Positions 3,806 through 64,000 of a stretch of DNA of 64,000 nucleotides are shown here, one piece after another; the stretch's first letter is position 1, and the number at the start of each line of letters is the position of its first letter. The translations under genes were made by a program, and so were the position numbers. Under the pieces are notes generated by a model. It saw nothing but the letters and a program-made list of their open reading frames with translations. It was not told the DNA's origin and made no database searches. This DNA is from a virus. The stretch is taken from IMG/VR virus record IMGVR_UViG_2921643360_000001, positions 1 through 64,000 of that record, one strand, 5' to 3'.

Positions 3806-4639
3806 TTACTTGCTGAGTTGGATCATCGGCATTGCGCTGCCCATCATGTACTGAGGGTAGTGCCCGTCCCATTTGGCGATCTTCTGTTGCTCGATCAGCG
3901 CGGGGTTTGCCTCAAGCGATTTGCCCGTCAGCTCATTGGCCTTGGCGTTGTTCTCAGCAACCTTCAGCGCTGCCTCAGACTCAACGACGCGCTTTTGCGC
4001 TTCCCACTTCGTCTGGGCAATTTCGTTCTCGACGCGCAATGCGTTCTGCTGGGCGGTGATCTTCGCCTCAATGGCGTCGTTGAACTGCTTGCTAAACTGG
4101 AAGTCAACGATGTTCACCGCCGACACATTCACGCCGATATTCTTGAACCGAGTCAGCAACGCCTCGCGGATCTCCTGACTAACCTGGTCCCGCTTCTGAA
4201 TCAGGTCAGTAGCTTCGTATCGGGCCACGATAGCCTTCACGATGTCATGCACTGCCGGGTCCATGACTTGCGCCCACGGATCGCCGCCGAGATTGGCATA
4301 AACGCCGACTGCCGCAGTCGGAAGAATATTGAAGTTGACGGCGACCTTCATGTCGGCCTGTTGCAGGTCTTTTGAAGAACCCGCGATATCCGATTGCGCC
4401 TTGTACACGCCGATGTAGACCGTGTGCATCGACTGCGAAATCGGCATACGGAAGTGGATGCCGGGCTCGTACACCGTGGCGGATGGAGCGCCGAACGTGG
4501 TCATCACGCCGACGTAGCCCGCTGGCACGGATGCGAACGGCCAGAGGATGAAAAGCGCGATGAGCAATACAACTGCGCCGATAGCGCCGAGGATCAGCTT
4601 GATGCCGCCTCGCGGGACTTCTCTGGATGCAACAGCCAT
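3806..4639 (-). CDS. SPFH / band-7 (prohibitin, HflK/HflC-like) membrane protein
   Basis: N-terminal TM helix (LILGAIGAVVLLIALFILWPF) followed by a band-7 core (GYVGVMTTFG...) and a C-terminal coiled-coil/Ala-rich tail. Start chosen at Met47 of the listed ORF (ATG at 4637-4639), which has an AAGGA RBS 7 nt upstream. Confidence 0.8.
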   Translation of the reverse strand: MAVASREVPRGGIKLILGAIGAVVLLIALFILWPFASVPAGYVGVMTTFGAPSATVYEPGIHFRMPISQSMHTVYIGVYKAQSDIAGSSKDLQQADMKVAVNFNILPTAAVGVYANLGGDPWAQVMDPAVHDIVKAIVARYEATDLIQKRDQVSQEIREALLTRFKNIGVNVSAVNIVDFQFSKQFNDAIEAKITAQQNALRVENEIAQTKWEAQKRVVESEAALKVAENNAKANELTGKSLEANPALIEQQKIAKWDGHYPQYMMGSAMPMIQLSK

Positions 4640-4795
4640 TTGATTTTCCTTGTGGGTAGAAAAAGAGACCCGAACCGAAGTCCGGGCCTTAAGCGCCGTC
4701 CCAGTGGACCTACTGGCACGGATGGAGAAGAAGTGCCGCTGCCCTTGGTTCATGCGAAACGCGCTAGGCCAATGCATGTGGGCTGCGGCGGTAAG

Positions 4796-5227
4796 TCAGA
4801 ACGGCACATCGTCCGCCATGTCCTCGAAACCACCACCAGCCGGCGCACGTTGCGGCGCTGGACGCTGCTGCGGCTTCGGTGCTGGCGCGGGCGCTTGCTG
4901 CTGCGGCTGACCACCTCCCGCCAGGTCAATTGCAGTGATCCGACCGGCGAGCTTCACGCCTTCGGTGCCGTCCGCTTTCTTGAATGTCTCGATGTGTGTG
5001 TCTTCCAGCGCGACGGTAACAAGCGCGCCTTTCGTGAAGTACGGGGCCAACGCCTCTGCGCGCTTACCCCACAAAGCACCGTCGACCCACTGAACCGGCT
5101 TCTTTCCGTCGTCGCCCTTGCGCCCATAACTGAACGCCAGTGAGACGCTCGCGACGGCATCGCCGCCCGTTGTGTTGCGCACTTCAACATCTCGACCGAT
5201 GCGGGCCAATCCGAAAATTTGAATCAT
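4796..5227 (-). CDS. ssb: single-stranded DNA-binding protein
   Basis: OB-fold N-terminus, Gly/Gln/Pro-rich linker and the canonical acidic C-terminal tail ...DMADDVPF. Confidence 0.85.
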   Translation of the reverse strand: MIQIFGLARIGRDVEVRNTTGGDAVASVSLAFSYGRKGDDGKKPVQWVDGALWGKRAEALAPYFTKGALVTVALEDTHIETFKKADGTEGVKLAGRITAIDLAGGGQPQQQAPAPAPKPQQRPAPQRAPAGGGFEDMADDVPF

Positions 5228-23881: not shown

Positions 23882-24489
23882 ACCGTCTCCCCAGAAAAAA
23901 GAAGTGCGCAGCTTGCAAGACGGTTTTCGAACCAGCGCGCTCACTCCAGAAAGTGTGTAGCCCCAAGTGTGCCGCCGATTTTGCAGCGAAACAGAAAGCG
24001 CAGAAGTTGGCGAGGGCGAATCGGGAGGAGAGGAAGTCCCTCGCAGAGCGTAAAGCCAAGCTCAAGACTCGCCGCGAGTGGATTGCCGAGGCTCAGGCGG
24101 CATTTAACGCATACGTGCGTGAGCGAGATTACGGGAAGCCATGCATAAGTTGCGGCATCCCGCCGAGGGAAGCTTTCGGCGGCGCTGTTGATTGCGGTCA
24201 TTATCGAAGTGTTGGCAGCGCTTCTCAGCATCGCTTCAATTTAAAAAATTGCGCTGCACAATGTGTCAAATGCAATAGATATTTAGGATCTAATGCCGTC
24301 GAAATGAGGAAAGGACTTATAATTAAGATTGGTCTAGAAGAATTGGAAAATCTAGAGTCAGACCAGACCATCAAGAAGTTCAACATCGAATACCTCGCTC
24401 GCATCAAGCGAGTCTTCCTCAAGAAAGCGCGGCGAGCTAAGGCCCGGAGAAATCATGAGCATAACGAAATGGAATATGCAGCCGGGTGA
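23878..24489 (+). CDS. ninG: NinG / Rap-like protein
   Basis: Cys motifs of the lambda NinG family: CAACKT...CSPKC...CISCG...DCGHYRSVG...RFNLKNCAAQCVKCN. Confidence 0.8.
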   Translation: MNRLPRKKKCAACKTVFEPARSLQKVCSPKCAADFAAKQKAQKLARANREERKSLAERKAKLKTRREWIAEAQAAFNAYVRERDYGKPCISCGIPPREAFGGAVDCGHYRSVGSASQHRFNLKNCAAQCVKCNRYLGSNAVEMRKGLIIKIGLEELENLESDQTIKKFNIEYLARIKRVFLKKARRAKARRNHEHNEMEYAAG

Positions 24490-25264
24490 CCGGTTTTGTC
24501 GGCTGACCTTCAAGAGTGAAGGCGACGGTCGTAAAAATCGGGCGAGATATGGAATCTTCATCTGCGATTGTGGTACCGAGAAAGATGTGGCGTTCTCGCA
24601 CGTTGTTTCGGGAAAAATAAAAAGTTGTGGATGCCTCAAAGCGGAAGATGCCGGTAACAGGCTTCGCACTCATGGGATGCATGGTTCGCCAGAATATACG
24701 GTGTGGCAAGACATGTGGCAGCGCTGCACCAATCCAAAGACGGACAGATATCCGAATTACGGCGGACGGGGCATATCCGTCTGCGAGCGGTGGAAGTCGT
24801 TCGAGAACTTCTTTGCAGACATGGGTCAGCGCCCAGAAGGAACGTCGATAGAGCGAAAGGAGACGAACGGCAACTACGAGCCAAGTAACTGTCGTTGGGC
24901 CACGCCCAAGGAGCAAGGAAGGAATAGAACCAACAACCGTTTTATCGAATACAACGGGGAGAGGAAATGTGTTTCTGAATGGAGCGAGCAATTCGGCATA
25001 CCTCATTCAACGATTAACAATCGACTTCGGCTAGGGTTATCGTTAGATCAGGTTTTTGATGCAAGTGCAGATGGGTTTAAAAAGAAGTCAATCGTTGTCG
25101 ATGGTGTATCGAAGTGCACCAACGAATGGATGCGTGATGCTGGCATACCGATTTCGTCCTTCTATCACTTCCGGCGAAAGGGGCTGACTGAAGAAGAGAT
25201 CGTCAGGAAGTATCTGGCGCGCAAGCAACCCTACTCTCAAACGAATAACGAGGAAGCAGCCTAA
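24455..25264 (+). CDS. HNH-like (HNH_3-type, N-C-R-W-A-T element) homing-endonuclease-like protein, paralogue 1
   Basis: N-terminal CxCG...SCGC zinc ribbon; then HG..SPEYTVWQDMWQRC...YGGRGISVCERW...ADMGQRPEG.SIERKETNGNYEPSNCRWATPKEQGRNR. Clear paralogue of 51329..51952 and 58804..59472. Confidence 0.55.
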   Translation: MSITKWNMQPGDRFCRLTFKSEGDGRKNRARYGIFICDCGTEKDVAFSHVVSGKIKSCGCLKAEDAGNRLRTHGMHGSPEYTVWQDMWQRCTNPKTDRYPNYGGRGISVCERWKSFENFFADMGQRPEGTSIERKETNGNYEPSNCRWATPKEQGRNRTNNRFIEYNGERKCVSEWSEQFGIPHSTINNRLRLGLSLDQVFDASADGFKKKSIVVDGVSKCTNEWMRDAGIPISSFYHFRRKGLTEEEIVRKYLARKQPYSQTNNEEAA

Positions 25265-44274: not shown

Positions 44275-46180
44275 ATGATCAACGTCTACGAAATCGGCAC
44301 GACGCTCAAGCTGAATGACCTGATCACGCCGCAACTGCTCAAGTTGTCGGACGAGTTCCGCAAGGTCGATGCGATCGCACTGCAGATCAACAAGCGCCTG
44401 AAGTCGATGGGCGCCGAGATCGTAGGCATTCGGAATCTTGCGGGCGCAACGAAAGGCCTGGCCGCCAGCATGAAAGCGATCAAGGACGAGTCGGCGCTGG
44501 CAGAAAAGAATCTGTTTGCGCTGCGCATGGCGTTGCCCAGTGGCGGTCTCGGACTCGAAGCCGAACTGATCGCGGCGAACGTGCAGGCTCGCACGCTGCG
44601 CGACGCTGGCTGGCATTCGTGGCGGCGGCCGCTTGCCTCCCGGTGGCGGCGGTGGTCATCTGCCGTCTCCTGGCGGTGCGGGTGGCGGTCGTCGCGGTGG
44701 CGGTCACATTCACGGCGGCAACATCCATGTTGGCTCAGGCGGAATCGGTATCGGCGGAATCGGCATGGGACTGATGAGCGATGCTCTGATCCCGCTCGGC
44801 GCGGGCATGGTCACCTACTACGTCGGCAAGCAGTTCTACGAAGGCGCGAAGGACTATCAGGACGCCTTCATGCGCTTCAAATCGCTGAATCTCGGCGATC
44901 AGGTCAATGCTGAGGCTGACAAGTTCGTCAAGGCGACGAAAGTCTACGGCGTCTCGCAGACCGAACTGATGAAGGCGCTGGGCGAATCGGTTGGCCTGTT
45001 CGGTTCGTTCGATGAGGCGAAGAAGTTCACGCCCGACCTGCTGACGCTCGGTAAGGCCAACTCGGCGGTATTCGGCGACAAGAACGGGCATCTCGACGAT
45101 GAGGGGTTGAAAAGCCTGCTCAAGTTCATCGATCGCCGCGGTGGATTCAAGGACGAAGCGACATTCAAGCGCAATCTTGACCTCGCAGAAAAGATGGTCA
45201 CAGGCTCATCCGGGTTCTTGAAGTTTAACGACCTCGGCGCATTCTCCCAGAACGCAGGCACGGCATTCCGCACGCTTTCCGATGAGGGTTTGCTGGAAAT
45301 GGAGGGCCTGCTGATCGAACAAGGCGGCCAGAAAGCGGGTACGGCGTGGATGAGCCTGTATCAGAACCTGGTCGCTGGCCGCACGCCGAAAAAGACGATG
45401 GGTCTGCTGCAAGACCTTGGTCTCGGGACGCTCCAGATGCAGGAGCATGGTTCTGTCGGCGGCAAGCCCCTGAAGTCTCTTGTCATGGCGGATATCAAGG
45501 AGTCCGCGCTACTCCAGTCGAATCCGCCAAAGTGGATGCGCGACGTTCTGATCCCGACCATGCAGGCGCATGGGATTACGTCAGAGGCTCAGCAGTTGAA
45601 AGCGGTGAACGACATTCTGTCGAACCGTACAGCGTCTGGTCAGGGTTCCATCATGACGACGCAGCAGTTCCAGCTTTTGCGGGACTTTCACCTTGCCAGG
45701 GGCGCTATGGGCGCAGACAAGGTGTCCGGCATGTTCAAGGACTCCGCATCGGGCGCTGAAGCCGATTTCGACGCTGCGTGGACGGATTTCAAGAAGCAGT
45801 TCGGCACTACGATGCTGCCACAGATCACGAGCATGCTGAAGACCGGAACAGACCTGCTGCGCTCGCTGGCAAGCATCACGGAAAGCGAGAACTTCAAGTC
45901 GTTCATGAGTTTCGCATCAAAGGTCAACGGCACCTTCGGCTGGCTGCCAAAGCAGTTTTTCGGCTCAGCCAATGCGGCTGAACCCGGACAAAGCCCGAAC
46001 GTTAAGACGGGCACGCCACAGCCTTTCAAGCTGAGTACGACTATCAACCTCGACGGCAGAAAGATCGGCGAGGCGGCGACGGACTACATCCTGAATGGCA
46101 TGGGCAAGCCCCAATCCACCAGTTCCGGCTTCGATTTCACACGCGCAGCACCGCCAATCGGCCACTCTTTCGCACGCTAA
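44275..46180 (+). CDS. tail tape measure protein with apparent +1 frame break near 44600-44635
   Basis: A plausible N-terminal part is in frame 1 (44275..about 44610). The remainder is in frame 2, a 515-aa ORF starting with a Gly-rich segment. The junction lies in a ggcggcggcc/GGN repeat tract. Confidence 0.6.
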
Positions 46181-47134
46181 ATGGCAACCAATCTCTCTCT
46201 CGGCGATGTCCTGTTCGCGGATCTCGAAATCCCTGAACACATCACGTTCGGCGGCGAACAGCGGCTGACGGTGCATGAACTGGTCGGCGGCACGCGCATT
46301 ATCGACGCGATGGGCCGCTCGGACATGCCGCTTGACTGGTCGGGCTGGTTCATGGGTCAGAATGCGCTGGCTCGTGCGCAATATCTCGAGGCGCAGCGCA
46401 TCGCCGGCACATCGGTGCCGCTGGTCTGGTCCGAACTGTTCTACGACGTTGTCATCCAGCGATTCGAGGCGGATTTCCAGCGCGAGTGGATGATCCCTTA
46501 TCGGATCACCTGCGTTGTGGTTGCGAATCATGCGCAGCCGCAGACGTCGCTTGCTGGACCGTCGATCAACGACCTGATGGCGTCGGACCTGTCGAGCGCC
46601 AACCTGCTTGCGAGCCAGATCGGCAATAGCACGCTGACCGGTCTGATGGGCACGGTCAATTCGGCTATCTCCACAGTATCGAGCTTCGCCAGCGCTACGG
46701 CCAGCACGATCAATAGCGTTCTTCAGCCGATCAATGCGGTACAGCAGCAGGTTGCGACGCTGATCGGGCAAGCGGCAAACACGATGGCGAACGTGACGAC
46801 ACTGGGCGGCATCCTGCCAAATAACCCGATCTCGACATCGGTGGCGAACATCGCGGCACAAGTCACGGCGTATCAGCAATCTCCCCTGCTCTACAACCTC
46901 CAGTCCGTCATGGGGCGTATGTCGATCAACCTCGGCAACGTCACAGGTGCGACGCAGCAGATCACGACGGCTGGCGGCAACCTGATGGATCTGGCCGCCA
47001 AGGTCTACGGCAAGGCTGAAGCATGGACGGGCATTGCAAAGGCTAACGGCCTGAGAGATCCCGTTGTGCAGGGCGTTCAAACACTCAACATTCCGGTCAC
47101 GCCGGATAACAGCGGCGGCGTCCTGACTTCATGA
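46181..47134 (+). CDS. tail protein with C-terminal LysM-like domain (Mu gp43 / P2 gpX-like)
   Basis: C-terminal AKVYGKAEAWTGIAKANGLRDPVVQGVQTLNIP resembles LysM. Confidence 0.55.
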   Translation: MATNLSLGDVLFADLEIPEHITFGGEQRLTVHELVGGTRIIDAMGRSDMPLDWSGWFMGQNALARAQYLEAQRIAGTSVPLVWSELFYDVVIQRFEADFQREWMIPYRITCVVVANHAQPQTSLAGPSINDLMASDLSSANLLASQIGNSTLTGLMGTVNSAISTVSSFASATASTINSVLQPINAVQQQVATLIGQAANTMANVTTLGGILPNNPISTSVANIAAQVTAYQQSPLLYNLQSVMGRMSINLGNVTGATQQITTAGGNLMDLAAKVYGKAEAWTGIAKANGLRDPVVQGVQTLNIPVTPDNSGGVLTS

Positions 47135-48273
47135 CGACACTCAACATCGTTCCTGCGGTCGCCTCCGCACGGCAGCCGCGCGGCATGGTGTTGCTGGGCG
47201 ACCCGAATCAGCCTGGCACGTCGGTTCCGTGGATCGACTGGGACGTCGAGCAGAACGCGTGGCATTCGGCCAGCACGTTTCGCATGCGCCTGCCTATCTC
47301 TGCGCTGAGCGCTCCAATTGATCTGAATTACGTGCTCGGCACAAACCCGATCCAGGCGCAGATCTTCGCAGGCTTTCCGGGCAACCCCGATAGCTACGGA
47401 ACAGCCGATCTCCAGCAACTCATCACGGGCAACGTCGACCAGATCCAGTTTGGGCCGGCGAGGCGCTGGATTGAACTGAGCGGACGCGATTACACGTCGC
47501 TGCTGATCGATGCGAAAACGTTCGACCGCTGGACCAACCAGACGGCGAGCGAGATTGCGGCGACGCTGGCGAATCGTCATGGTCTGAAGCCGCAAGTTAC
47601 TGCGACGACGGGCGCAGTCGGCAAGATCTACGAAATCGACAAGATCCACGATCGGCACGGCAGCACCGAATGGGAATTGCTCACGTGGCTGGCAGGCATC
47701 TATGACTTCGTGGTCTATGTGCAGGGCATGACGCTGTACTTCGGGCCGAAGCCTGACCCGACGACGGCGACGCCCTACGCGCTCCAGTGGAAGAACCCGG
47801 ATGCGCTGACGACTACGACGTTCCAGGGCAATGTGCTCGACATGTCGTTCTCACGCACGCTGACGGTCGGAAAGGGTGTGACGGTTCAGGTTCACAGCTT
47901 AAATCACAAGCAGAAAACCGGATTCACCGTCACTTATCCCGAAAGCAAAGCCAAGGGAATCAAGCCCGGTTCGGCGACCGCGCCCGCTCAGGTCTACAGC
48001 TACATCATCGCCAATCTGACGCAGCAGGATGCACAGCAGCGCGCGAAACAGATCTACGACGACATCATCCACCACGAACTCAAGATGAGCGCCGAACTGC
48101 CAGGCGACAACATTTTGACGCCAAACACGATGGTGAGTGTTTCCGGGACCGAAACACCATTCGACACGATGTATTACGTTGAATCCGTCAGTCGGCGCAT
48201 GAGCATCGATTCAGGTTATTCAATGTCGATGCGCGGCAAGAATCACTCGCTCGACACTACAGTCATTCCATGA
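47131..48273 (+). CDS. baseplate hub / late control protein D-like (P2 gpD, Mu gpP)
   Basis: 380 aa; position and size match. Confidence 0.65.
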   Translation: MTTLNIVPAVASARQPRGMVLLGDPNQPGTSVPWIDWDVEQNAWHSASTFRMRLPISALSAPIDLNYVLGTNPIQAQIFAGFPGNPDSYGTADLQQLITGNVDQIQFGPARRWIELSGRDYTSLLIDAKTFDRWTNQTASEIAATLANRHGLKPQVTATTGAVGKIYEIDKIHDRHGSTEWELLTWLAGIYDFVVYVQGMTLYFGPKPDPTTATPYALQWKNPDALTTTTFQGNVLDMSFSRTLTVGKGVTVQVHSLNHKQKTGFTVTYPESKAKGIKPGSATAPAQVYSYIIANLTQQDAQQRAKQIYDDIIHHELKMSAELPGDNILTPNTMVSVSGTETPFDTMYYVESVSRRMSIDSGYSMSMRGKNHSLDTTVIP

Positions 48274-48920
48274 TCGACAACCTTCTCAACCAGATACGCG
48301 CTCACGCCCAGATGGCCCAGGGCGAGAAGACGACGCATCGGGTCGGCCAGGTGACGGCATATGACCCAAGCAAGTATTCGGTCAAGGTCAAGATGTGGCC
48401 GGACACGCAGGAATCGCTGGGCTGGATTCCGCTTGCGTCGACCTACATCGGGAATGGATGGGGACTCGTCGCGGGGCCATCCATCGGCGATCAGGTGATG
48501 ATCGCATTCGATCGCGAGGATCAGGATGCGGGCGTCGTGGTTGGCAGGTTCTTCACGGATGTGGAGCAGCCCCCGGCCGCCCCATCCGGGGACTTCTGGC
48601 TGGTGCATAAGTCGGGCTCGCTGCTGAAGTTTCACGGCGATGGCTCGGTCGAATTGACAGCCAATGCGACACTGACCTACCGCGCCGCTCAGCATCACTT
48701 CATTGGGCCTGTGCAGATGGATGCCACCCTCAACGTGAATCAGGCGATCAGCGGCGAGGGAGGAATGTCGATCTCTGGCGACAACGGCAGCGGCCACGCG
48801 TCGACCGTCACTGGCAACACGAACTTTGTCGGCGGTGTGACCGCAAACGGTCACGACATCGGCAGCACGCATCAGCACATCAATTCAGGCGGCTCTGGCC
48901 TCGGTGGGGTTCCGCAATGA
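48270..48920 (+). CDS. baseplate spike protein gpV-like
   Basis: 216 aa with a Gly-rich C-terminus. Confidence 0.6.
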   Translation: MIDNLLNQIRAHAQMAQGEKTTHRVGQVTAYDPSKYSVKVKMWPDTQESLGWIPLASTYIGNGWGLVAGPSIGDQVMIAFDREDQDAGVVVGRFFTDVEQPPAAPSGDFWLVHKSGSLLKFHGDGSVELTANATLTYRAAQHHFIGPVQMDATLNVNQAISGEGGMSISGDNGSGHASTVTGNTNFVGGVTANGHDIGSTHQHINSGGSGLGGVPQ

Positions 48921-49318
48921 CAACGCAATCTCTCAATGACCTGAATCAGTTGTGGTCCCAGGATATCGTCCCGAGCCCGACTGGCGATCTCGGCATAGCA
49001 ACCGACGCGACCCGCAGCCAGCAGCGCGTCATCCGGCGCCTGTTGACAAACCCGCTTGACGCGAACGGACCTCCTGACTATCCGCTCCATCCTACCTACG
49101 GCGCAGGACTAGCCCGGTACGTCGGCCAAAACGTCGACCTCGCCAAGATGCGCACGCTGATCCGCGGGCAGATGCTGCTCGAGGATTCTGTCTCGAAGAA
49201 TCCGCAGCCGCAAGTCACCGTGAAGCTGGTTGATCCGACAACCCTATCCGTCTACATCAGGTACACCGTCGCCGGGTCGGGATCGCCAGCCGTCTTGCAA
49301 TTCAACGTCAATAACTGA
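48917..49318 (+). CDS. baseplate protein gpW / GP25-like
   Basis: 133 aa. Confidence 0.55.
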   Translation: MTTQSLNDLNQLWSQDIVPSPTGDLGIATDATRSQQRVIRRLLTNPLDANGPPDYPLHPTYGAGLARYVGQNVDLAKMRTLIRGQMLLEDSVSKNPQPQVTVKLVDPTTLSVYIRYTVAGSGSPAVLQFNVNN

Positions 49319-49337
49319 CGCATCGACATTCAATCTG

Positions 49338-49360
49338 AGCCACCTTCGGGTGGCTTTTTG
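49338..49360 (+). terminator. rho-independent terminator inside the baseplate operon
   Basis: AGCCACC-TTCG-GGTGGCT followed by TTTTT. Confidence 0.6.
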
Positions 49361-49374
49361 CATTTCAGGACGCT

Positions 49375-50502
49375 ATGGCATCGATCAACCAATGGAGTTT
49401 GAGCCAGGCGATCGGCAACATGGTCGCGTCTACGCAGGCCAAGGCAAAGGTTCTGCTCGACTTCACCGTTGGCTCGGTCAATCTGGCGATCATTGAGGCC
49501 GTCGCTCAGGTGGTGATCTGGCTTGAGGGCTTAATCCTCACGCTGCTCGCTGTCACGCGAGCCGCAACGTCGAGTGGCTCCGATCTTGACTCGTGGATGG
49601 CGGATTACGGCCTGACGCGGCTTGCGGCTACCTCGTCGACCGGGCAAGTCACCTTCTCACGATTCACGCCGACGTATCAGGCGGTCGTGCCAGTCGGAAC
49701 TGTTGTGCAAACGGCGGACGGGACGCAGCAATTCACCGTCATCGCCGATACGACGCAGACGGCCTACAACGCGACGCTCGGCGGCTATGTCATCGCTGCG
49801 GGCATCTCTGGCGCCGTCGCAACAGTCCAGGCGGTCAACGCCGGCACGCAGACCAACGTCCTCGCCAATACGGTCACGACGCTGACGCAGGCGGTGCAAT
49901 ACGTCGATACGGTCACGAACGCAAATCCGTTCGCTAACGCCGTCGACACCGAGACTGACACTGCGTTTCGGGCGCGGTTCGTCACTTACATCAACTCACT
50001 GTCGAAGGCGACGAAAAGCGCAGTCGGCAATGCGATCCTCGCGGTTCAGCAAGGACTGTCCTATGTGCTGGTGGAAAACCAGACGTATGGCGGTGCCACG
50101 CAAATGGGCTACTTCTACGCCGTCGTCGCACTGAATGGCGCGGTGCCCGGATCGACGCTACTCAATTCGATCGCCAATGCGGTCGACGCGGTTCGGCCAA
50201 TTACCTCGACGTTTGGCGTGTTCGCCGCTGCTACCGTCAACGCGAATATCGCGATGACTATCACGACGTCGTCCGGTTACACACATTCGGCAGTGGTCAC
50301 GCAGGTTCAGACGGCTCTGCAAAGCTACATCGCCACGCTGGGCATCGGTCAGACGTTGGCCTATACCCGCCTCGCGCAAGTCGCGTATGACGCATCACCT
50401 GGCGTGACTGGAGTCAGCGCAATCACGCTCAACGGCGGCACGTCAGATCTCACCGCTACGCAGCAACAACTGATCGTCAGCGGCACGCTGAGCATCACGT
50501 AA
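49375..50502 (+). CDS. baseplate J-like protein
   Basis: 375 aa. Confidence 0.65.
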   Translation: MASINQWSLSQAIGNMVASTQAKAKVLLDFTVGSVNLAIIEAVAQVVIWLEGLILTLLAVTRAATSSGSDLDSWMADYGLTRLAATSSTGQVTFSRFTPTYQAVVPVGTVVQTADGTQQFTVIADTTQTAYNATLGGYVIAAGISGAVATVQAVNAGTQTNVLANTVTTLTQAVQYVDTVTNANPFANAVDTETDTAFRARFVTYINSLSKATKSAVGNAILAVQQGLSYVLVENQTYGGATQMGYFYAVVALNGAVPGSTLLNSIANAVDAVRPITSTFGVFAAATVNANIAMTITTSSGYTHSAVVTQVQTALQSYIATLGIGQTLAYTRLAQVAYDASPGVTGVSAITLNGGTSDLTATQQQLIVSGTLSIT

Positions 50503-50511
50503 GGAGGCGCC

Positions 50512-51228
50512 TTGTCGATTGGAGATAGCAACGACGTCTTCGGGCGCCTGAAAGCCGCCCTGCCGCAGCGATGGTTTGGGTCGACTTCGGATTCGATGCC
50601 GGTTGTCGATTCGATCCTGGCAGGACTCGGAACCGGGTTGACGTTCATCTATTCGCTGTATGCCTACGCCAAGGCACAAACAAGACTTTTAACCTGTTCG
50701 GATGGCTTTCTCGATATTTTCGCCAGCGACTTCTTCGGGTCGTCGATACAGCGCAAGGCAAACCAGTCTGACGCCTCATTCAGGGGAGTCATCCAGGCAA
50801 ATCTATTCGCCGAGAAGGCCACACGCAAAGGCGTCGTCAACGTCCTTACGACCATCACCGGGCGAGCGCCAGTCGTATTCGAGCCCAACCGCGTTGGTGA
50901 CGTCGCAATTATGGGCGTGCCAACGGCAGGCGGACAGAACTACATGGGCATTCAGACGAGCATGTATGTCGGGCCTGCGCGCATGGCGTCCACGGCGACA
51001 CCCTACCAGGCTTTCATCATCGCATACCGCCCACAGGCAACGGGCGGATCGGCTGGCGGTGCTTTTACGGATGCGCCCACTCAAGCCGCACTGAATACGC
51101 CCCTCGCCAAGTCATACACCAATTCCCTGTCATTGCTGACGTCAAGCGCAACCGACGCCGACATCTACGCAGCAGTGGACGCTACGCGCCCGGTCGGAAC
51201 CATTCTCTGGGTAAGCATTTCGAACTGA
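50512..51228 (+). CDS. baseplate / tail protein I-like (Mu gp48-like)
   Basis: 238 aa. Confidence 0.5.
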   Translation: MSIGDSNDVFGRLKAALPQRWFGSTSDSMPVVDSILAGLGTGLTFIYSLYAYAKAQTRLLTCSDGFLDIFASDFFGSSIQRKANQSDASFRGVIQANLFAEKATRKGVVNVLTTITGRAPVVFEPNRVGDVAIMGVPTAGGQNYMGIQTSMYVGPARMASTATPYQAFIIAYRPQATGGSAGGAFTDAPTQAALNTPLAKSYTNSLSLLTSSATDADIYAAVDATRPVGTILWVSISN

Positions 51229-51328
51229 CAAGCATGTCTAATCTATTTCGGCTAAAATAGCGAGACCCGCTCGGTGCGCTAACACCTTGCGGGCCTCTAA
51301 CCACCATCTGCTTTCGAGGAGCAAAACG

Positions 51329-51952
51329 ATGGCTACCAAAGATTTTACCTCAGTTGGCGCAGTATTTTCCCGCCTTACCGTGATAGGTTCGCCAGAGAAG
51401 CGCGACCAGCGCTGGTTCGCGCCCTGCCGTTGCGAATGCGGGGCCGAGAAGTTTGTGCAATGCAAGCATCTTGTGTCCGGCGCGACGGTTTCCTGCGGTT
51501 GCGTGAAAAAGGGGCGACCCAACCTGAAGAATCGGACCCATGGCAATTGCGTTGGCGAGAGCAAGGCTTCTCCAACGTATCTAAGCTGGGTTGCTGCCAA
51601 ATCGCGTTGCGATGATGCCAAGGACCGAGACTATGCGAATTACGGCGGTCGGGGCATTCGCATGTGCGATCGCTGGCGCAATGATTTCTCGACGTTTCTC
51701 GCCGACATGGGCGAGCGGCCCGTTGGCATGACGCTAGACCGCTTCCCGGACACGGACGGCCACTACGAGCCGGGCAATTGCCGCTGGGCGACGAACCGCG
51801 AGCAACAGAATAACCGCCGCAATAATGTCCTCATTGAGCACGGCGGCCAGATGAAAACATGCACGCAGGTCGCCCGCGAATATGGAATCCGCCCCAGTGT
51901 GTTCATTGGCCGCATACGACGAGGATGGTCGGTAGAACGCGCCACATCCTAA
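51329..51952 (+). CDS. HNH-like homing-endonuclease-like protein, paralogue 2
   Basis: CRCECG...SCGC zinc ribbon, then YGGRGIRMCDRW...ADMGERPVGMTLDRFPDTDGHYEPGNCRWATNREQQNNR. AGGAGCAAAAC RBS precedes it. Confidence 0.55.
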   Translation: MATKDFTSVGAVFSRLTVIGSPEKRDQRWFAPCRCECGAEKFVQCKHLVSGATVSCGCVKKGRPNLKNRTHGNCVGESKASPTYLSWVAAKSRCDDAKDRDYANYGGRGIRMCDRWRNDFSTFLADMGERPVGMTLDRFPDTDGHYEPGNCRWATNREQQNNRRNNVLIEHGGQMKTCTQVAREYGIRPSVFIGRIRRGWSVERATS

Positions 51953-51988
51953 CCTGTCGGCAAATAGATAGCTGACGCTAAAACACCA

Positions 51989-52043
51989 AGCCCGCTAAAC
52001 GCGGGCTTTTTCATTTTCTGGCCCGCCATCGTGCGGGCTTTTT
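51989..52043 (+). terminator. tandem rho-independent terminators
   Basis: AGCCCGC-TAAAC-GCGGGCT + TTTTT (51989-52011), and GCCCGC-CATCGT-GCGGGC + TTTTT (52021-52043). Confidence 0.7.
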
Positions 52044-52060
52044 GCATTTCTGGAGCCTAA

Positions 52061-53704
52061 ATGGACCGTGTGATTACGTATGTAGGGATGAGCGTATACG
52101 AATGGCTCTTTTCTAAACAAGCGCAAAGCTCGATGGTCGGGCTCTCGAAGCTGTCGGCCGCCATGTTCGGTTCGAATACCGTGGCCAATGGTCTTTCCTG
52201 CGTACCGACCGGCCCCGCTTCGCTGCAAGTCGTCATCAACCCCGGCGAAATCTACTCGTTCGCCAACCTCGAGAACAGCGTCTGCGGAACGCTGCCGACT
52301 GATTCTCACAGCATCATGAAGCAAGGCGTCCTGCTGGATGCTTTTACGACGACTGCTGGTGCGCTTCCCGCGCCAGGCACGGCTGGACAGTCGGTGAACT
52401 ATCTCATCGAAGCCCAGTACGCAGATTCAGACGTCTCGGTCGATCCGACGACGGGCAGCGCGCCTGTCGTGCTTCAGTTCTATAACTCTTCGAATCCCGG
52501 CTCGCCTTGGAGCGGTCCTGGCGGCCTCGGCGGCACGAGCAACACGTTCCGTAAGGGCGTTGTGTCGCTCCAGATCAAGGCAGGTGCCGCGGCAACGACG
52601 GGCAGCCAGACGACGCCCTCACCTGATGCTGGCTGGACTGGGCTGTGGGTCGTGACGGTCGCCAATGGGCAGACACAGATCCTCGCGGGCAACATCACGC
52701 AATACGCAGGCGCGCCAATCCTGCCGTCGTCGATTCTTTCGTCGATCCAAAGCGGAAATATGTCGTATGCGGTCGCAACCGGGTCGGCTAACGCTCACAC
52801 GATCGCCTTGACGCCGGCTCTCACGTCGCGCGTCGACGGCATGATGATCCGCTACAAGGCTCCTGCCGCCAACACGACAGCCGTGACGCTGAACGATGGC
52901 GTCGGAACGGCCAACGTTCTCGGCGCGAACCACGCGGCACTCCAGGGCGGCGAATACATCACCAACGGTGACGCCATTGTCGTCTGGAATAGCTCGATCA
53001 GCGGCGGTTCGTACATCCTCATCGAATGCACTGGCGGCGCCCTCCAAATCCCCCCCGCCACTCAGAGCCAGCATGCTGTGCAGTTGGGGCAGGTGCAGCA
53101 GAACTATGCGTGGAATGGCGGGTTCCAGGCCGTTAGCGCAACCGGGAACTTTACAGTTCCGGCCGGCGTTTATAGATTGCGTTACCGCGTATGGGGTGGC
53201 GGTGGCGGCTCAGGCGGATGTGGGTCGACTGGCCAGACAGCAGGGGGCGCTGGCGGTGGCGGCTACTCCGAGGGAGTCGCTAGCGTAACTCCTGGTCAAA
53301 CTGTGTCATGCACTATTGGAGCAGCAGGTACCGCCGGGGGGGCAGGTGGCTCCGGTGGTACAGGCGGCACTACGTCGTTCACTGCAGGCGCTTTGACGGT
53401 TTCCGCTACCGGCGGGTCTGGAAGTTCAAACGGCATAGGGTCTGGCGGGAATGGAGCAGCCGGTGGCACCGGATCTGGTGGGCAAAACAACCTGACTGGT
53501 GCCGGCGGCTGCTCGGGTTCGGGCTCGACGGGCGGCCCTGGGGGCATGGGTGGTTCGGCCCCCCAAGGCGGTGGCGGTGGCGGTGGCGCAACTGGGACCG
53601 CCCAGTCCGGGCAGACGCCTGGCGGCGGCGCAGGAGGGCCTGGTGCGGCTGGAGCCAACCCGGGCGCCATTGGCGGAGCTGGTCGCATTGTTTTTGAATG
53701 GTGA
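52061..53704 (+). CDS. tail fibre protein with Gly-rich C-terminal domain
   Basis: 547 aa. The C-terminal 180 aa are about 60 % Gly (GGGGSGGCGSTGQTAGGAGGGG...). Confidence 0.7.
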   Translation: MDRVITYVGMSVYEWLFSKQAQSSMVGLSKLSAAMFGSNTVANGLSCVPTGPASLQVVINPGEIYSFANLENSVCGTLPTDSHSIMKQGVLLDAFTTTAGALPAPGTAGQSVNYLIEAQYADSDVSVDPTTGSAPVVLQFYNSSNPGSPWSGPGGLGGTSNTFRKGVVSLQIKAGAAATTGSQTTPSPDAGWTGLWVVTVANGQTQILAGNITQYAGAPILPSSILSSIQSGNMSYAVATGSANAHTIALTPALTSRVDGMMIRYKAPAANTTAVTLNDGVGTANVLGANHAALQGGEYITNGDAIVVWNSSISGGSYILIECTGGALQIPPATQSQHAVQLGQVQQNYAWNGGFQAVSATGNFTVPAGVYRLRYRVWGGGGGSGGCGSTGQTAGGAGGGGYSEGVASVTPGQTVSCTIGAAGTAGGAGGSGGTGGTTSFTAGALTVSATGGSGSSNGIGSGGNGAAGGTGSGGQNNLTGAGGCSGSGSTGGPGGMGGSAPQGGGGGGGATGTAQSGQTPGGGAGGPGAAGANPGAIGGAGRIVFEW

Positions 53705-53928: not shown

Positions 53929-55242
53929 ATGCTTATTTCGAAAATCGGCGGGGCGGTAAATAAGGTAGCGATGTCGGTCAAGCATCGCGTCGTCGGGCGG
54001 GCGATCTCTACGCTAGAGAAACCTCATCAGGCAGTTCCCGATGTCGCGATTCCCGATGTTCCCGAGACGGATGAGTCTGTTCTCGCTCGATCCGAGTCTA
54101 TTATTTCCCGGGCAATTTCTGCTGGCCGATCTGGCAAGCTGACCGTTGTTCCTGAGATGATCTCCGTCGCGGCCACGGAAAACTGCAATCTTAAGTGTGT
54201 TATGTGCCCAGGTCATGCGGGTATGAGCGGTCCGAAACTCTCAGTCAATGAGGCCGAAATGCTATTCGCCTCGCTCGCTGTTGAAGGCCCGCATTTTGGG
54301 TCGCCGAAGATCCTAGACATGACATCTGGTGAGCCCACGCTCAACCCCGACCTAGGGCCAATTTACGGCCGATTCAAAGAACTTTTCCCCGATTCGAAGA
54401 TTTCGATGATAAGCAACGGGACGATCCCCGTTCGCGGTCGAACCCGTGAAGCATTCGAACATGCTGACCGCATCGGTCTTTCGATGGACGGCGCGACGCA
54501 GGAGACGTATGAGCGGATCCGTCAAGGGTCGATATGGAAGAACGTCATTCGCAATGTGATGGACGTTGCTGAAATCAAGAAGTTGGGTGAGAACTGCGAG
54601 ACGTTGCAGATCATGATGGTTGTTATGGACCAGAATATCCATGAACTACCTGAAATGATCCGCCTCGCACATTCCCTTGGAATTCCGCAAGTGTTCGCGC
54701 AGGTTTCTGAGATTCGTACTACCCCCTTCAATATCGCAGGGCAGAACGTTTCGCTTACTCTCTCAAAGGAAAAACTCGCCCCTATAGTACACGAGGCGAA
54801 GCAGGAGGCTCAGCGACTCGGCTTGGATTTGACTCTTACGGCGCATCTGGAAAATTCACTCGTTCCGGATGAGCCAAAGCAACCAGCGACTGCTCAGATG
54901 ACACATGACGAGCGCGCGTTGAGTGTCGCGATTCGAACGTGTAATGTGCCGTGGATGCATGCACCGCGCATTTCGCAAAATCACGATGGGATCTACCCCA
55001 CAACGGTTTGCTGCCATATGCCGAATGTCCATGGCGCTGGCAATTTGGCACGCCGGGAGGAGTTCCGCGGGAAGTCGATCAACGAAATCTTCAACTCGCC
55101 ATACTATTGGGAAATTCGGGCTGGGTTGATGGATGGATCGCTTGCCAATGATGCATGCAAGGGTTGCCAGTATCACCAGATGACGCAGTGGACGGCCACC
55201 CAATTGCGCGAATTGGAAGAGGCCGTCGATGCATCAGTTTGA
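53929..55242 (+). CDS. radical SAM enzyme with C-terminal SPASM/twitch-like Cys cluster
   Basis: CNLKCVMC (the CxxxCxxC motif), SGEPTLNP glycine-rich SAM motif, and C-terminal CNVPW...CCHMP...CKGCQY. The first 60 nt are about 52 % GC, against higher-GC flanks. Confidence 0.85.
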   Translation: MLISKIGGAVNKVAMSVKHRVVGRAISTLEKPHQAVPDVAIPDVPETDESVLARSESIISRAISAGRSGKLTVVPEMISVAATENCNLKCVMCPGHAGMSGPKLSVNEAEMLFASLAVEGPHFGSPKILDMTSGEPTLNPDLGPIYGRFKELFPDSKISMISNGTIPVRGRTREAFEHADRIGLSMDGATQETYERIRQGSIWKNVIRNVMDVAEIKKLGENCETLQIMMVVMDQNIHELPEMIRLAHSLGIPQVFAQVSEIRTTPFNIAGQNVSLTLSKEKLAPIVHEAKQEAQRLGLDLTLTAHLENSLVPDEPKQPATAQMTHDERALSVAIRTCNVPWMHAPRISQNHDGIYPTTVCCHMPNVHGAGNLARREEFRGKSINEIFNSPYYWEIRAGLMDGSLANDACKGCQYHQMTQWTATQLRELEEAVDASV

Positions 55243-56506: not shown

Positions 56507-57187
56507 TTATTCTCCGAGCGCAACTGTCAAATTAGCTGCGTGATTTGCTGTCCAGACGGTTGCGAAAGCTTGCAGCGATGCTTTGCGCTCGTCATAGTCC
56601 TTGCCCAAGCCGATCATTACGGCGTTGCGCTCTTCCAGTCTTGCCAGAAGATCGAGCGCAGTCGTTGACAGGCTGTCGCGCTCAAGAGATTGAAACTTGC
56701 CTGATGCGGCCCAGTTGACCAGCCGCGCCTCATTGGAAAAATGATGCGGAGCGCATGTCTTGCCGATGGCCTCGCGGCTCAATTGCACAATCTGCGACAT
56801 GACCTTGTATGACGCTGCGGCTTCGTGGCGAAGACGTTTCTGGTCAAAGTGCGGATGCTGGCGTGTGATGAGCGCACGAATTTGCCGATCGCACCAGATA
56901 GCGAAGCGCACGTCCAGCCATCGGGCGAATCCAACCGCAAGATCGGGATGAAGCCAAGTTCCGCCGCTCTTGCCGCGCAAGGTGCGAATCCAATTACCAG
57001 ATTCTCCGGTATTTAAGGATTCATCCAAGGCAGCGATGTATTCCTGTGTGGCAGGAAGGGCGAGCCAGTCATTCGGACGCTTGCCGAATTGCGAGGCGAT
57101 GGCTGTCGCATTGAACCAACCTTCGTCAGTAAATGAGACGGCCACGCCTTGGTAGTCTGCGACGATGATTTGCTGTTTGGGGGCCAT
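56507..57187 (-). CDS. KilA-N domain protein
   Basis: N-terminal KilA-N/APSES-like segment (VSFTDEGWFNATAIASQFGKRPNDWL...GGTWLHPDLAVGFARWLD). Confidence 0.65.
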   Translation of the reverse strand: MAPKQQIIVADYQGVAVSFTDEGWFNATAIASQFGKRPNDWLALPATQEYIAALDESLNTGESGNWIRTLRGKSGGTWLHPDLAVGFARWLDVRFAIWCDRQIRALITRQHPHFDQKRLRHEAAASYKVMSQIVQLSREAIGKTCAPHHFSNEARLVNWAASGKFQSLERDSLSTTALDLLARLEERNAVMIGLGKDYDERKASLQAFATVWTANHAANLTVALGE

Positions 57188-58014: not shown

Positions 58015-58629
58015 ATGCAACTCACAGCACAGATTGTCGCGTCAGGGTGTGGCTCAGCGCTTCTTCGGGCGGCGCAGTGGGTCGCCCCGCTCCAATCCGC
58101 CTGCGACCGCTACCACATCGACACGCCTCTGCGCGTCGCGGCCTTCCTGTCGCAGATCGGCGTCGAGTCTGCCCGCCTCACCGCCCTCGTCGAAAACCTG
58201 AATTACTCGGCAGAGGGTTTGCTCGCAACCTTCCCGAAGTACTTCAACGCAGTGCAGGCGGCGCAGTACGAGCGACAGCCGCAGCGCATCGCGAATCACG
58301 TCTACGCGAATCGGTACGGCAATGGTGACGAGGCGAGCGGAGATGGATTTCGATTTCGCGGCAGAGCGTTGCTCCAGATAACCTTTAGAGACAACTATGC
58401 CTCATGCGGTAAGGCGATTGCGCTGCCTCTCGACTCACATCCTGAGTTGCTTGAGCAACCATGCAATGCGGCGCTCGCGGCTGGCTGGTATTGGGACTCG
58501 CGCAACCTTAACCCGCTGGCCGATGCCGGTCGATTCGAGGGCATCACGCGCGCTATCAACGGCGGGCTCGCAGCGTATTCCGAACGCCTCGCTCTCTATA
58601 GCGCTGCAAAGAAGTCACTCGGTATCTGA
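58015..58629 (+). CDS. endolysin, glycoside hydrolase family 19 (chitinase-like)
   Basis: GH19 catalytic signature GNGDEASGDGFRFRGRALLQITFRDNY. Confidence 0.85.
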   Translation: MQLTAQIVASGCGSALLRAAQWVAPLQSACDRYHIDTPLRVAAFLSQIGVESARLTALVENLNYSAEGLLATFPKYFNAVQAAQYERQPQRIANHVYANRYGNGDEASGDGFRFRGRALLQITFRDNYASCGKAIALPLDSHPELLEQPCNAALAAGWYWDSRNLNPLADAGRFEGITRAINGGLAAYSERLALYSAAKKSLGI

Positions 58630-58803
58630 TTATCCCCTCGCATCCCTCGCTAAGGGATAGCGGCCAAACGGGTAATTTCACGATAACTGCGACACGCGTA
58701 GCTCGATCGTAGTCCGAAATTTTGAGGTAAAATAGCGAGAGCGGAAAGGTACTTGCGATACCGATCCGCTCTCTAACCAAAGCCTGCTTACAAGGAGCAA
58801 ACT

Positions 58804-59472
58804 ATGGCTATCCGCAAGTATATCGCATCTGGCGAAATCCTCCATGGTTGGGTCTACGTCCGAGAGGGCGTGGATCGCGGCAGGACTCGGCACATCTTCG
58901 CAATGTGCCCCTCATGCAAAAACGAAGTCGAAGTAAATGCGACTGAGGTGCGGACTGGAAAAAAGAAAATGTGCCGTCCATGTGCCGACAAATTCAACGG
59001 GGCGAGATGCCTGGTTCATGCAGAAAAGTGGGCGACGCACAGGATGTCAGGTTCGACAACTTACGAATCATGGCGGTCTATGATGAAGCGTTGCTACTTA
59101 GAAAGTGCAACGTTCTATCAATACTACGGCGGAAAAGGGGTCAAAGTTTGCGACCGTTGGCGGGATTCGTTCGCCAATTTCTTTGCTGATATGGGAGAGC
59201 GCCCTGAAGGCATGACCTTGGACAGATACCCCGACAAGAACGGTGACTACGCGCCGGGTAACTGCAGATGGGCAACGCCAACGGAACAGATTCGCAACAG
59301 AAATACCACGGTGTATATTGAGTTCCGGGGGTTGCGCAAAACGATGAAGGAATGGGCGGATGAAATTGGTGTCGCCTACAAGACATTACGCGCAAGGATA
59401 GTTGACCAAGGATGGCCAATAGACCGCGCACTTACTACGCCGCTGCGGATCCACAGAAAGCACGTCCCATAA
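58804..59472 (+). CDS. HNH-like homing-endonuclease-like protein, paralogue 3
   Basis: CPSCK...CRPC ribbon; YGGKGVKVCDRW...ADMGERPEGMTLDRYPDKNGDYAPGNCRWATPTEQIRNR. Same 5' and 3' flanks as paralogue 2. Confidence 0.55.
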   Translation: MAIRKYIASGEILHGWVYVREGVDRGRTRHIFAMCPSCKNEVEVNATEVRTGKKKMCRPCADKFNGARCLVHAEKWATHRMSGSTTYESWRSMMKRCYLESATFYQYYGGKGVKVCDRWRDSFANFFADMGERPEGMTLDRYPDKNGDYAPGNCRWATPTEQIRNRNTTVYIEFRGLRKTMKEWADEIGVAYKTLRARIVDQGWPIDRALTTPLRIHRKHVP

Positions 59473-59497
59473 ATCAAAGAAGTCGCTGCGACTGACA

Positions 59498-59522
59498 AGC
59501 CCGCCATTGTGCGGGCTTTTTG
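59498..59522 (+). terminator. rho-independent terminator
   Basis: AGCCCGC-CATTGT-GCGGGCT followed by TTTTTGTTTT. Confidence 0.7.
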
Positions 59523-62783: not shown

Positions 62784-63290
62784 ATGTCCGTTCAAGATAC
62801 CCACGAGCTGAAAGACACACTCGTAGCAGATTACTTCGTGCCGGGTCATGAGGCGCGCACCACCACCGCCCTTTTCGAGCGCACGCGAAAGATCCTCATC
62901 GAACGCGAAGGTGGCCGCTGCTTCGTCACCAACATGACCGCTGAAGAACTCGGCGCGCCGTTGCAGGCTCATCACCATCCTGTCGAGCGCTGCTTTGCGA
63001 CCGCATGGGACTGGCCGCGCTTTGCCGATGACTGCAAGGCTGGAAAGTGGGGGCCGCACGCGCAGGAATTCGATTGGGATTCGTTCCTTTCCGCAAAGCC
63101 GTTTGACCCTTACCGCTTTGTCGATGACATGACCGTCAACGGCATGTTGCTCGGCGCCGGGCCGCACATCGGGAAAGACCAAGGTTTGCACAGGTTGCCG
63201 TTTCCTGTGTGGTTGTTCACCAAATACGCCGTTGAGGGCTATCGCTTCAGCCCAACCGAAACCATCCATCACGACCCGGAACATCTATGA
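62784..63290 (+). CDS. hypothetical protein with possible HNH-like His/Cys motif
   Basis: GGRCFVTNMTAEELGAPLQAHHHPVERC. The assignment is weak. Confidence 0.35.
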   Translation: MSVQDTHELKDTLVADYFVPGHEARTTTALFERTRKILIEREGGRCFVTNMTAEELGAPLQAHHHPVERCFATAWDWPRFADDCKAGKWGPHAQEFDWDSFLSAKPFDPYRFVDDMTVNGMLLGAGPHIGKDQGLHRLPFPVWLFTKYAVEGYRFSPTETIHHDPEHL

Positions 63291-63943: not shown

Positions 63944-64000
63944 GACTCCCCCATGAAAGCGCTTTTCATTGCCGCTGCTGCGGCAGGCTTCGCCATGCTC

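Follow-up and report, generated by a model that had tools for sequence, protein, structure and literature searches.

We analyzed a 64,000-nucleotide stretch of viral DNA (positions 1 to 64,000 of IMG/VR record IMGVR_UViG_2921643360_000001; hereafter the window), the source of which is a Paraburkholderia steynii contig with a 100% identical protein. Two related nuclease-like genes lie on its plus strand. Paralogue 2 (51329-51952; 207 amino acids) is preceded by tape measure and baseplate genes (44633-51228) and followed by a fibre gene (52061-53704), while paralogue 3 (58804-59472; 222 amino acids) follows the endolysin gene (58015-58629). A preliminary description of the window had viewed each gene, together with its flanks, as a mobile unit bearing its own promoter and terminator. 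Here we focus on the conserved block situated 5' to each gene, which, judging from its sequence, most likely represents a small cis-antisense RNA gene on the minus strand, related to SymR and RepX, that would hold translation of the nuclease low.

Each of the 5' and 3' elements listed for the two cassettes in the preliminary description was present by sequence at the positions given. The element TAAAATAGCGAGA occurs at 51253-51265 and 58728-58740, which are its sole exact copies in the window, and CTCTAACCA (51295 and 58771), AGGAGCAAA (51317 and 58793) and GCCCGCCATYGTGCGGGC (52021 and 59499) are likewise limited to 2 occurrences each. Common to both cassettes are an exact 13-mer, an exact 9-mer, the region of the ribosome-binding site (RBS) and ATGGCTA. 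The hairpins described for the two 5' flanks are indeed present, and the differences between them are compensatory. In a pairwise alignment of the cassettes the flanks were conserved far above the coding sequence, the 2 proteins being only 36% identical. The proposal that the flanks share more than generic features held for the 5' block, which covaries and for which a covariance model found exactly 2 copies in the 64 kb (72-77 bits; next match 8 bits). It failed for the 3' stem, since GCCCGC/GCGGGC is generic in this genome and is used by 7 T-tailed terminators in the window.

On the minus strand, both 5' blocks predict an RNA of ~80 nucleotides that folds into 2 stem-loops. Predicted RNA 1 spans 51253-51334 (minus strand) and predicted RNA 2 spans 58728-58809 (minus strand). 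The predicted 5' end, AGCCAU, complements ATGGCT and lies opposite the second codon and the AUG; ATGGCTA is best read as the 5' end of the antisense RNA. Stem-loop 1 is closed by the stem AGCCAU/GUGGUU and exposes an anti-Shine-Dalgarno CUCC in its apical loop, opposite the Shine-Dalgarno (SD) sequence; the SD (AGGAG) and start codon of paralogue 2 (51317-51331, plus strand) both fall fully under the predicted RNA, and the SD is conserved at -12 to -9. The linker between the stem-loops of RNA 1 is GGUUAG, with a UAG/UUAG core. Stem-loop 2 corresponds to the variable hairpin of the preliminary description (51262-51297 in RNA 1; 58737-58773 in RNA 2), and is followed by the tail GCUAUUUU (GCUAUUUUA in RNA 1). 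Accordingly, CTCTAACCA is the complement of UGGUUAGAG, comprising the 3' half of the closing stem of stem-loop 1, the linker and the base of stem-loop 2, while TAAAATAGCGAG is the complement of CUCGCUAUUUUA, comprising the stem base and the U-rich tail. The element TAAAATAGCGAGA, which had been called promoter-like, thus makes better sense on the minus strand, where it would supply the stem base and U-rich tail of the antisense RNA. Predicted promoters for the 2 RNAs lie on the same strand: the -10 hexamer TAAAAT (51342-51347, inside codons 5-7 of the nuclease gene) is positioned 7 nucleotides upstream of the predicted start at 51334, and the -10 hexamer TATACT (58817-58822) is positioned 7 nucleotides upstream of the predicted start at 58809. 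RNAalifold proposed extending stem-loop 2 by pairing UGGU with GCUA. We rejected this extension in favor of the AGCCAU/GUGGUU closing stem of stem-loop 1 because E. coli SymR breaks UGGU/GCUA, but compensates AGCCAU/GUGGUU.

The block is not restricted to the window. Pattern scans of viral and metagenome contigs, followed by filtering with R1, a covariance model built from 5 phage copies, yielded at least 59 distinct copies; the filter was needed, as the relaxed pattern ATAGCGAG-N18-48-CTCTAACC gave mostly chance matches in viral contigs. The layout is constant and consists of ATAGCGAG, a variable hairpin of 26-33 nucleotides, CTCTAACCA, 15-32 nucleotides containing the SD, and ATGGCT. The matched elements span 39 to 67% GC, and their hairpins vary by compensatory changes.

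We evaluated the predicted structure using 54 of these copies together with E. coli SymR. Paired cells amounted to 91.7%, compared to 38-45% in slid-partner controls, and the covariation score of 0.475 (0.137 in shuffles) was reached by none of 500 shuffles. The closing stem itself contains a compensatory pair, in that AGUCAU/GUGAUU of E. coli corresponds to AGCCAU/GUGGUU of the phages (C-G to U-A). We likewise compared the 2 strands across 59 copies. The antisense fold was the more stable one in 57 of the 59 (mean -39.3 vs -28.2 kcal/mol; Wilcoxon, 4e-11), and the antisense folds contained 282 G-U pairs compared to 45 in the sense folds. Since G-U pairs become C-A mismatches on the opposite strand, this asymmetry indicates that selection acts on the minus-strand RNA. 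Both window copies conform, with minimum free energies of -43.0 (antisense) vs -32.5 kcal/mol (sense) for copy 2, and -38.3 vs -30.7 kcal/mol for copy 3.

A -10-like TANNNT was located 5-8 nucleotides upstream of AGCCAU in 45 of 56 copies, and exactly 7 nucleotides upstream in 27, against a background of ~0.7 per offset; 24 of the 45 also bear the TG of an extended -10. This antisense hexamer is held within codons 5-7 even though the encoded proteins are unrelated. Homology searches point to the same strand. In a permissive Rfam scan of 51200-51360, the minus strand matched SymR (RF01809) over its full length (44.5 bits, E value 9e-8), and 3 further family members matched the SymR model at 31-41 bits. 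The sense strand, equivalent to the repA-sense strand, weakly matched RF00043, the family of the R1162-like plasmid antisense RNA, at 23.2 and 29.3 bits, the latter in copy 3; copy 3 and other family members match the same 2 Rfam families. Conversely, model R1 returned the E. coli symE leader as its top match (25 bits, E value 1e-6). Model R2, an 83-position covariance model for which the IncQ locus was outside the training set, matched the RepX locus of an IncQ plasmid over its full length (L187 372-456, minus strand; 34.5 bits, E value 1.5e-7), and its matches to window copies 2 and 3 (76.5 and 72.2 bits) were both on the minus strand. On its own account, the RF00043 consensus matches the repA-sense strand of the IncQ plasmid pSTMDT12_S (L187 384-458), including the SD and AUGGCUAC; the RF00043 model therefore appears to be stored in the mRNA-leader orientation rather than in that of RepX.

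Several observations weigh against an antisense RNA gene at these positions. Rfam at its gathering threshold returned no match for the 5' block, and the permissive scores lie below the gathering cut-offs (44.5 vs 61 bits for SymR; 23.2 and 29.3 vs 55 bits for RF00043). Neither window copy bears the TG extension, a good -35 was not seen, and the U-run after stem-loop 2 is missing in some family members, as it is in E. coli SymR. The source of the target mRNA has to be inferred, because no sense promoter was found. Moreover, the pattern used for collecting copies fixed ATAGCGAG, CTCTAACCA and, mostly, ATGGC, so that the conservation of these elements is in part a matter of ascertainment; covariation, promoter positions and strand asymmetry are free of it.

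SymR, the type I antitoxin of E. coli symE, is a cis-antisense RNA that pairs with the symE 5' region and represses SymE synthesis (PMC1891008). The predicted RNAs resemble it in length (~77-85 nucleotides), in covering the AUG and SD of the target from the antisense strand, in forming 2 covarying stem-loops on that strand, and in having a 5' end (AGCCAU in the window, AGUCAU in E. coli) that faces the AUG and the second codon. As in E. coli, the predicted start lies 6 nucleotides inside the target coding sequence, with a hexamer (TAGAAT in E. coli) 7 nucleotides further upstream and still within that coding sequence. Also shared are the anti-SD in the loop of stem-loop 1, the UUAG linker, a GC-rich stem-loop 2 with a similar apical sequence (GUGUUGGCGCAC in E. 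coli SymR, GGUGUUAGCGCACC in the window) and a 3' end in ...CGCU. In contrast to SymR, the target is an HNH-superfamily-like phage gene (by its PHROG) rather than the AbrB-fold, SOS-induced SymE, and the host is a Paraburkholderia phage or prophage rather than an enterobacterial chromosome. A LexA-type sense promoter like that of symE was not seen at the window cassettes.

RepX, the 75-nucleotide countertranscript of the IncQ plasmids R1162/RSF1010, controls repA and repC, and hence plasmid copy number, and is bound and stabilized by a FinO-domain protein (PMC8136791). Like RepX, the predicted RNAs lie antisense to the target's RBS and start codon, and comprise 2 stem-loops with a GUUA linker and a 3' tail. 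The IncQ leader presents its elements in the same order as the window (hairpin-CUAACCACC-SD-AUGGCUAC), and its minus strand reads TGATAGGCT, 7 nucleotides and AGCCAU, a layout shared with the window. The targets differ, being nuclease-like genes in the window and replication genes in IncQ plasmids.

The T4 seg and mob genes are free-standing phage homing endonuclease genes (PMC2988022). The window cassettes share with them small nuclease-like genes that lie between conserved phage genes, presence/absence polymorphism and tightly restrained expression, the last of which is predicted for the window. T4 homing endonucleases are restrained by their promoters and by mRNA hairpins that sequester the RBS. 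In the literature searched, no title pointed to antisense-RNA control of a phage homing endonuclease, no paper was found that named SymR and R1162 together, and a term search of the RepX paper (PMC8136791) returned no mention of SymR. Cis-antisense control of a translation-initiation region is a known kind of regulation, with SymR and RepX having been studied experimentally. Based on literature screened by title and abstract, both the presence of this type of RNA before free-standing phage nuclease genes and the grouping of SymR, RepX and the phage RNAs as one portable module appear to be undescribed.

By homology with SymR/symE of E. coli and RepX/repA of IncQ plasmids, we infer the following mechanism, in which the expression and repressive effect of the RNA, as well as the toxicity and nuclease activity of the protein, are each putative. 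Each nuclease-like gene would be a free-standing, insertion-type cassette, the translation-initiation region of which is overlapped, on the minus strand, by the gene for an antisense RNA. Initiated at a -10 (often an extended -10) promoter in nuclease codons 5-7, this RNA would pair with the nuclease mRNA and occlude its SD and AUG, and this pairing would probably destabilize the mRNA. The target mRNA probably arises by read-through from the upstream late operons (baseplate and lysis, respectively), because no sense promoter was found and no terminator separates either cassette from the upstream gene. Synthesis of the potentially toxic nuclease would then require that sense transcription outrun the antisense RNA. 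To this proposal the present analysis contributes sequence, structure, covariation, strand asymmetry, a positioned promoter, homology and insertion polymorphism. Finally, the UUAG linker and GCUAU tail are invariant across hosts, which suggests, at the level of speculation, recognition by a conserved protein.

Relatives of the window bear on whether the cassettes are insertions. The site between the baseplate and fibre genes is empty in 2 prophages of Cupriavidus metallidurans (L191 and L192; baseplate protein 71% identical) and in a metagenome contig (L190; 80% identical), and is filled in another metagenome contig (L189; 78% identical). At all 3 empty sites the baseplate gene is followed by one GCCCGC-N5-6-GCGGGC terminator and, after 57-58 nucleotides, by a homologous fibre gene with the N-terminus MDRVI...GLSCVPTGPASLQVV. 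The L189 insert consists of the 5' block (70 bits), a gene for a 224-amino acid homologue and its own terminator, after which comes the resident terminator. Since relatives display both empty and filled sites, cassette 2 is an insertion, which bears out the earlier view of a free-standing HNH-superfamily-like gene placed between the baseplate and fibre genes, as well as the expectation of empty sites in related prophages. Presence/absence polymorphism at an intergenic site, as seen in free-standing homing endonuclease genes, was found here. The Ralstonia phage Raharianne also lacks an insertion (baseplate protein 47% identical); its fibre has no detectable homology to that of the window, and its empty site is therefore positional only.

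A further site, empty in the window (63944-63952), is filled in the syntenic viral contig L001, in which the 5' block, a gene for a 278-amino acid homologue and a terminator (positions 400-1372) separate the homologous lipoprotein gene from the next signal-peptide gene. In the mutually syntenic contigs L002 (13390-14131) and L003 (430-1134), different nuclease genes, one a classical HNH_3 gene and the other paralogue-2-like, occupy the same site behind the same 5' block, which suggests that the gene was swapped behind a retained regulatory module. No empty site was found for copy 3; the gene downstream of it has a single relative, L193, and this contig is not syntenic.

Other explanations were considered. 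In one of them, the cassette brings its own sense promoter, with TAAAAT as the -10, and the hairpin stabilizes the 5' end of the mRNA, making the whole a promoter-gene-terminator moron. TAAAAT is a good -10 hexamer in both window copies and in several relatives, a 5' hairpin would stabilize the mRNA, and the cassette carries its own terminator. However, a scan upstream of either gene found no sigma-70-type -35/-10 sense promoter, so that a moron with its own promoter lacks its defining part, and the bases preceding ATAGC form no consistent -10 across the family (for example, TTTGAT, ACCAAT and TGACAT). The far more stable and G-U-richer fold of the opposite strand speaks against a sense promoter too, and such a promoter would leave unexplained the conserved ATGGCT and positioned TANNNT inside the coding sequence as well as the minus-strand match to SymR. 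We regard this explanation as unlikely; of the moron originally proposed, the cassette's own terminator and its insertion between genes that adjoin in relatives stand, and its sense promoter is unsupported.

The block might instead act as DNA, as a homing or recombination target or a single-stranded insertion hairpin. It marks the 5' boundary of inserted cassettes that contain different genes, and hairpins with conserved flanks are used in some single-stranded-DNA recombination systems. Yet the orientation of the block and its spacing to the SD and AUG are fixed, the block reaches into the coding sequence, no recombinase accompanies it consistently, and its strand-asymmetric G-U pairing is a signature of RNA. 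Moreover, the homologous E. coli and IncQ loci make antisense RNAs that were shown experimentally (PMC1891008, PMC8136791), and we consider a DNA-level site highly improbable. Still harder to sustain is the notion that the similarity of the flanks is devoid of function, reflecting generic RBS and terminator features or a recent duplication or gene conversion in this genome. The 3' terminators do use the generic GCCCGC stem of the genome, and stem-loop 1 is nearly identical in copies 2 and 3. Neither point accounts for the same block in 59 distinct copies of 39-67% GC with compensatory changes, or for flanks that are conserved while the proteins are only 36% identical. Before the Rfam match was obtained, other ideas for the 5' block had been entertained, namely an RNase P minihelix or tRNA-like (ACCA) mimic, a small self-cleaving ribozyme, a preQ1-like riboswitch, an N4-type hairpin promoter and an attC-like recombination site; all were dropped after that match.

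Genes of the paralogue-2/3 family follow 11 of the 59 copies of the block. Other copies precede genes of the HNH_3, HNH (PF01844) and HNH_3+AP2 types and many short open reading frames (ORFs), as well as genes that do not encode nucleases: tyrosine recombinases, an ArdC-N anti-restriction domain protein, a GDSL-lipase lipoprotein and a GP88-family protein (L148, L169, L178/L180, L160/L168 and L018). The block is therefore not nuclease-specific, nor is it private to this one gene family, since other HNH families, integrases, ArdC and further genes also lie behind it. That the flanks travel with the gene was accordingly correct for the 5' block, which accompanies such genes in many phages, and probably incorrect for the 3' terminator at 52020-52039, the position of which is held by a resident terminator at the empty sites. 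No symE homologue was present among the 59 downstream genes. In one clade of the RNA family (metagenome contigs L123, L130, L132, L140, L142, L167 and L177) the downstream ORF is only 20-45 codons long, and at least one of these is hydrophobic (L132, ...VVPFGLRAFLYLLLVHF...); such ORFs could be classical small type I toxins. The L190 contig, empty at the fibre site, has a classical HNH (PF01844/HNH_5) gene with a GTG start (4214-5023) one intergenic site further upstream, flanked by the Baseplate_J gene and the following baseplate gene. This gene is preceded by a diverged RNA block (AAUGACAAG...CUCUAAACA, 32-35 bits), and the RNA family is therefore broader than the search pattern. Other searches added no members: a strict 22-base pattern in GTDB species genomes gave only 2 chance matches (L119 and L120, Asgard archaeon metagenome-assembled genomes), both inside coding sequences and devoid of a hairpin; neither megablast nor blastn, run with the region and with the 5' block, returned an informative match among INPHARED phages; and the motif strings retrieved only primers and unrelated sequences from full-text literature.

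We also entertain, tentatively and with somewhat less than even confidence, the broader view that SymR, RepX and the phage RNAs are versions of one ancient, portable, antisense-gated translation-initiation cassette that has been swapped before genes that are dangerous when leaky. If so, its parts would be the antisense promoter in codons 5-7, AUGGCU, the SD in a loop, the UAACCA block and stem-loop 2, and its targets would include, besides replication proteins and small toxins, integrases, ArdC and homing nucleases from several families. Phage homing endonuclease genes of the free-standing kind would then amount to type I toxin-antitoxin modules, and the invariant linker and tail would form the recognition site of a conserved FinO/ProQ-type chaperone. 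SymR and RepX, which have been studied separately, are linked through the 59 or more new copies, and look like one module of chromosomes, plasmids and phages. What appeared to be an HNH gene with its own promoter becomes a testable case of antisense-RNA control of a homing-endonuclease-like gene. Confirmation would explain how a phage tolerates multiple selfish nuclease genes in its late region, would give annotators a strand-specific RNA feature upstream of such genes, and would provide a compact (~110 nucleotides), host-independent translational gate for toxic genes.

With respect to the cassette protein itself, PHROGs assign it to 'HNH endonuclease', and its family comprises at least 7986 members that are devoid of a Pfam domain. 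Searches of Pfam, NCBIfam and PDB sequences returned no match, and an exact-protein look-up of paralogue 2 returned no record. A profile comparison with HNH_3 proteins was weak, aligning LDR...NCRWAT...EQ..N to DH...NL...N, with Arg (LDR) at the position of the usual HNH histidine. The AlphaFold model has a pLDDT (predicted local distance difference test score) of 90. Paralogue 2 comprises a Zn-ribbon/beta-barrel at its N terminus, a PacI-like beta-beta-alpha-Me core and, at the C terminus, a helical domain. Foldseek found no significant match in PDB, and the likeness to PacI, a beta-beta-alpha-Me HNH restriction endonuclease (PDB 3m7k), is modest, indicating a weak PacI-like fold. The cassette protein differs from PacI by the Arg at the HNH histidine position and by additional N- and C-terminal domains. 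The label 'HNH-like' is hence plausible, but not established. The nuclease-like fold and the analogy with SymR suggest that any toxicity of the protein would be neutralized by the antisense RNA, as in a type I system.

The 3' flank of paralogue 2 contains 2 intrinsic terminators on the plus strand. The first (51988-52008) is probably the cassette's own, and the second (52020-52039) is probably the resident terminator of the baseplate operon rather than cassette-borne: the filled L189 has 2 terminators, the empty sites have one, and L190, L191 and L192 carry GCCCGC-N5-6-GCGGGC and a T run at the position of the second, just upstream of the fibre gene. The second terminator and that after paralogue 3 (59497-59518, plus strand) are identical at 23 of 24 positions, which is only modestly beyond chance and falls short of showing that gene and terminator move together. 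Specific to this pair are a 6-nucleotide loop (5 of 6 identical) and a TTTTTG tail, for which a rough estimate over all terminator pairs gave p ~0.03. Within the 3' flank of paralogue 2, the tandem terminators (51988-52039) share one stem, resemble each other in their tails (GCGGGCTTTTTCATTTTCTGG and GCGGGCTTTTTGCATTTCTGG), and look like a local duplication made at insertion of the cassette.

Two other nuclease-type genes in the window lack the antisense-RNA module. Paralogue 1, of the same protein family (24455-25264, plus strand; 269 amino acids), displayed none of the cassette flanks in a motif and covariance-model scan of the window; it belongs to the early/replication region, and its C-terminal extension repeats the helix-turn-helix-like tail module (…WMRDAGIPISSFYHFRRKGLTEEE…). 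The other, at 62784-63290, is assigned to PHROG 8048 ('HNH endonuclease'), and its product is 93% identical to that of a gene in L002. Directly 3' of the tail-fibre gene lies a radical-SAM-domain gene (53929-55242), after which come genes on the minus strand, one of them for a transcriptional regulator (56507-57187); the stretch looks like a possible accessory or moron region.

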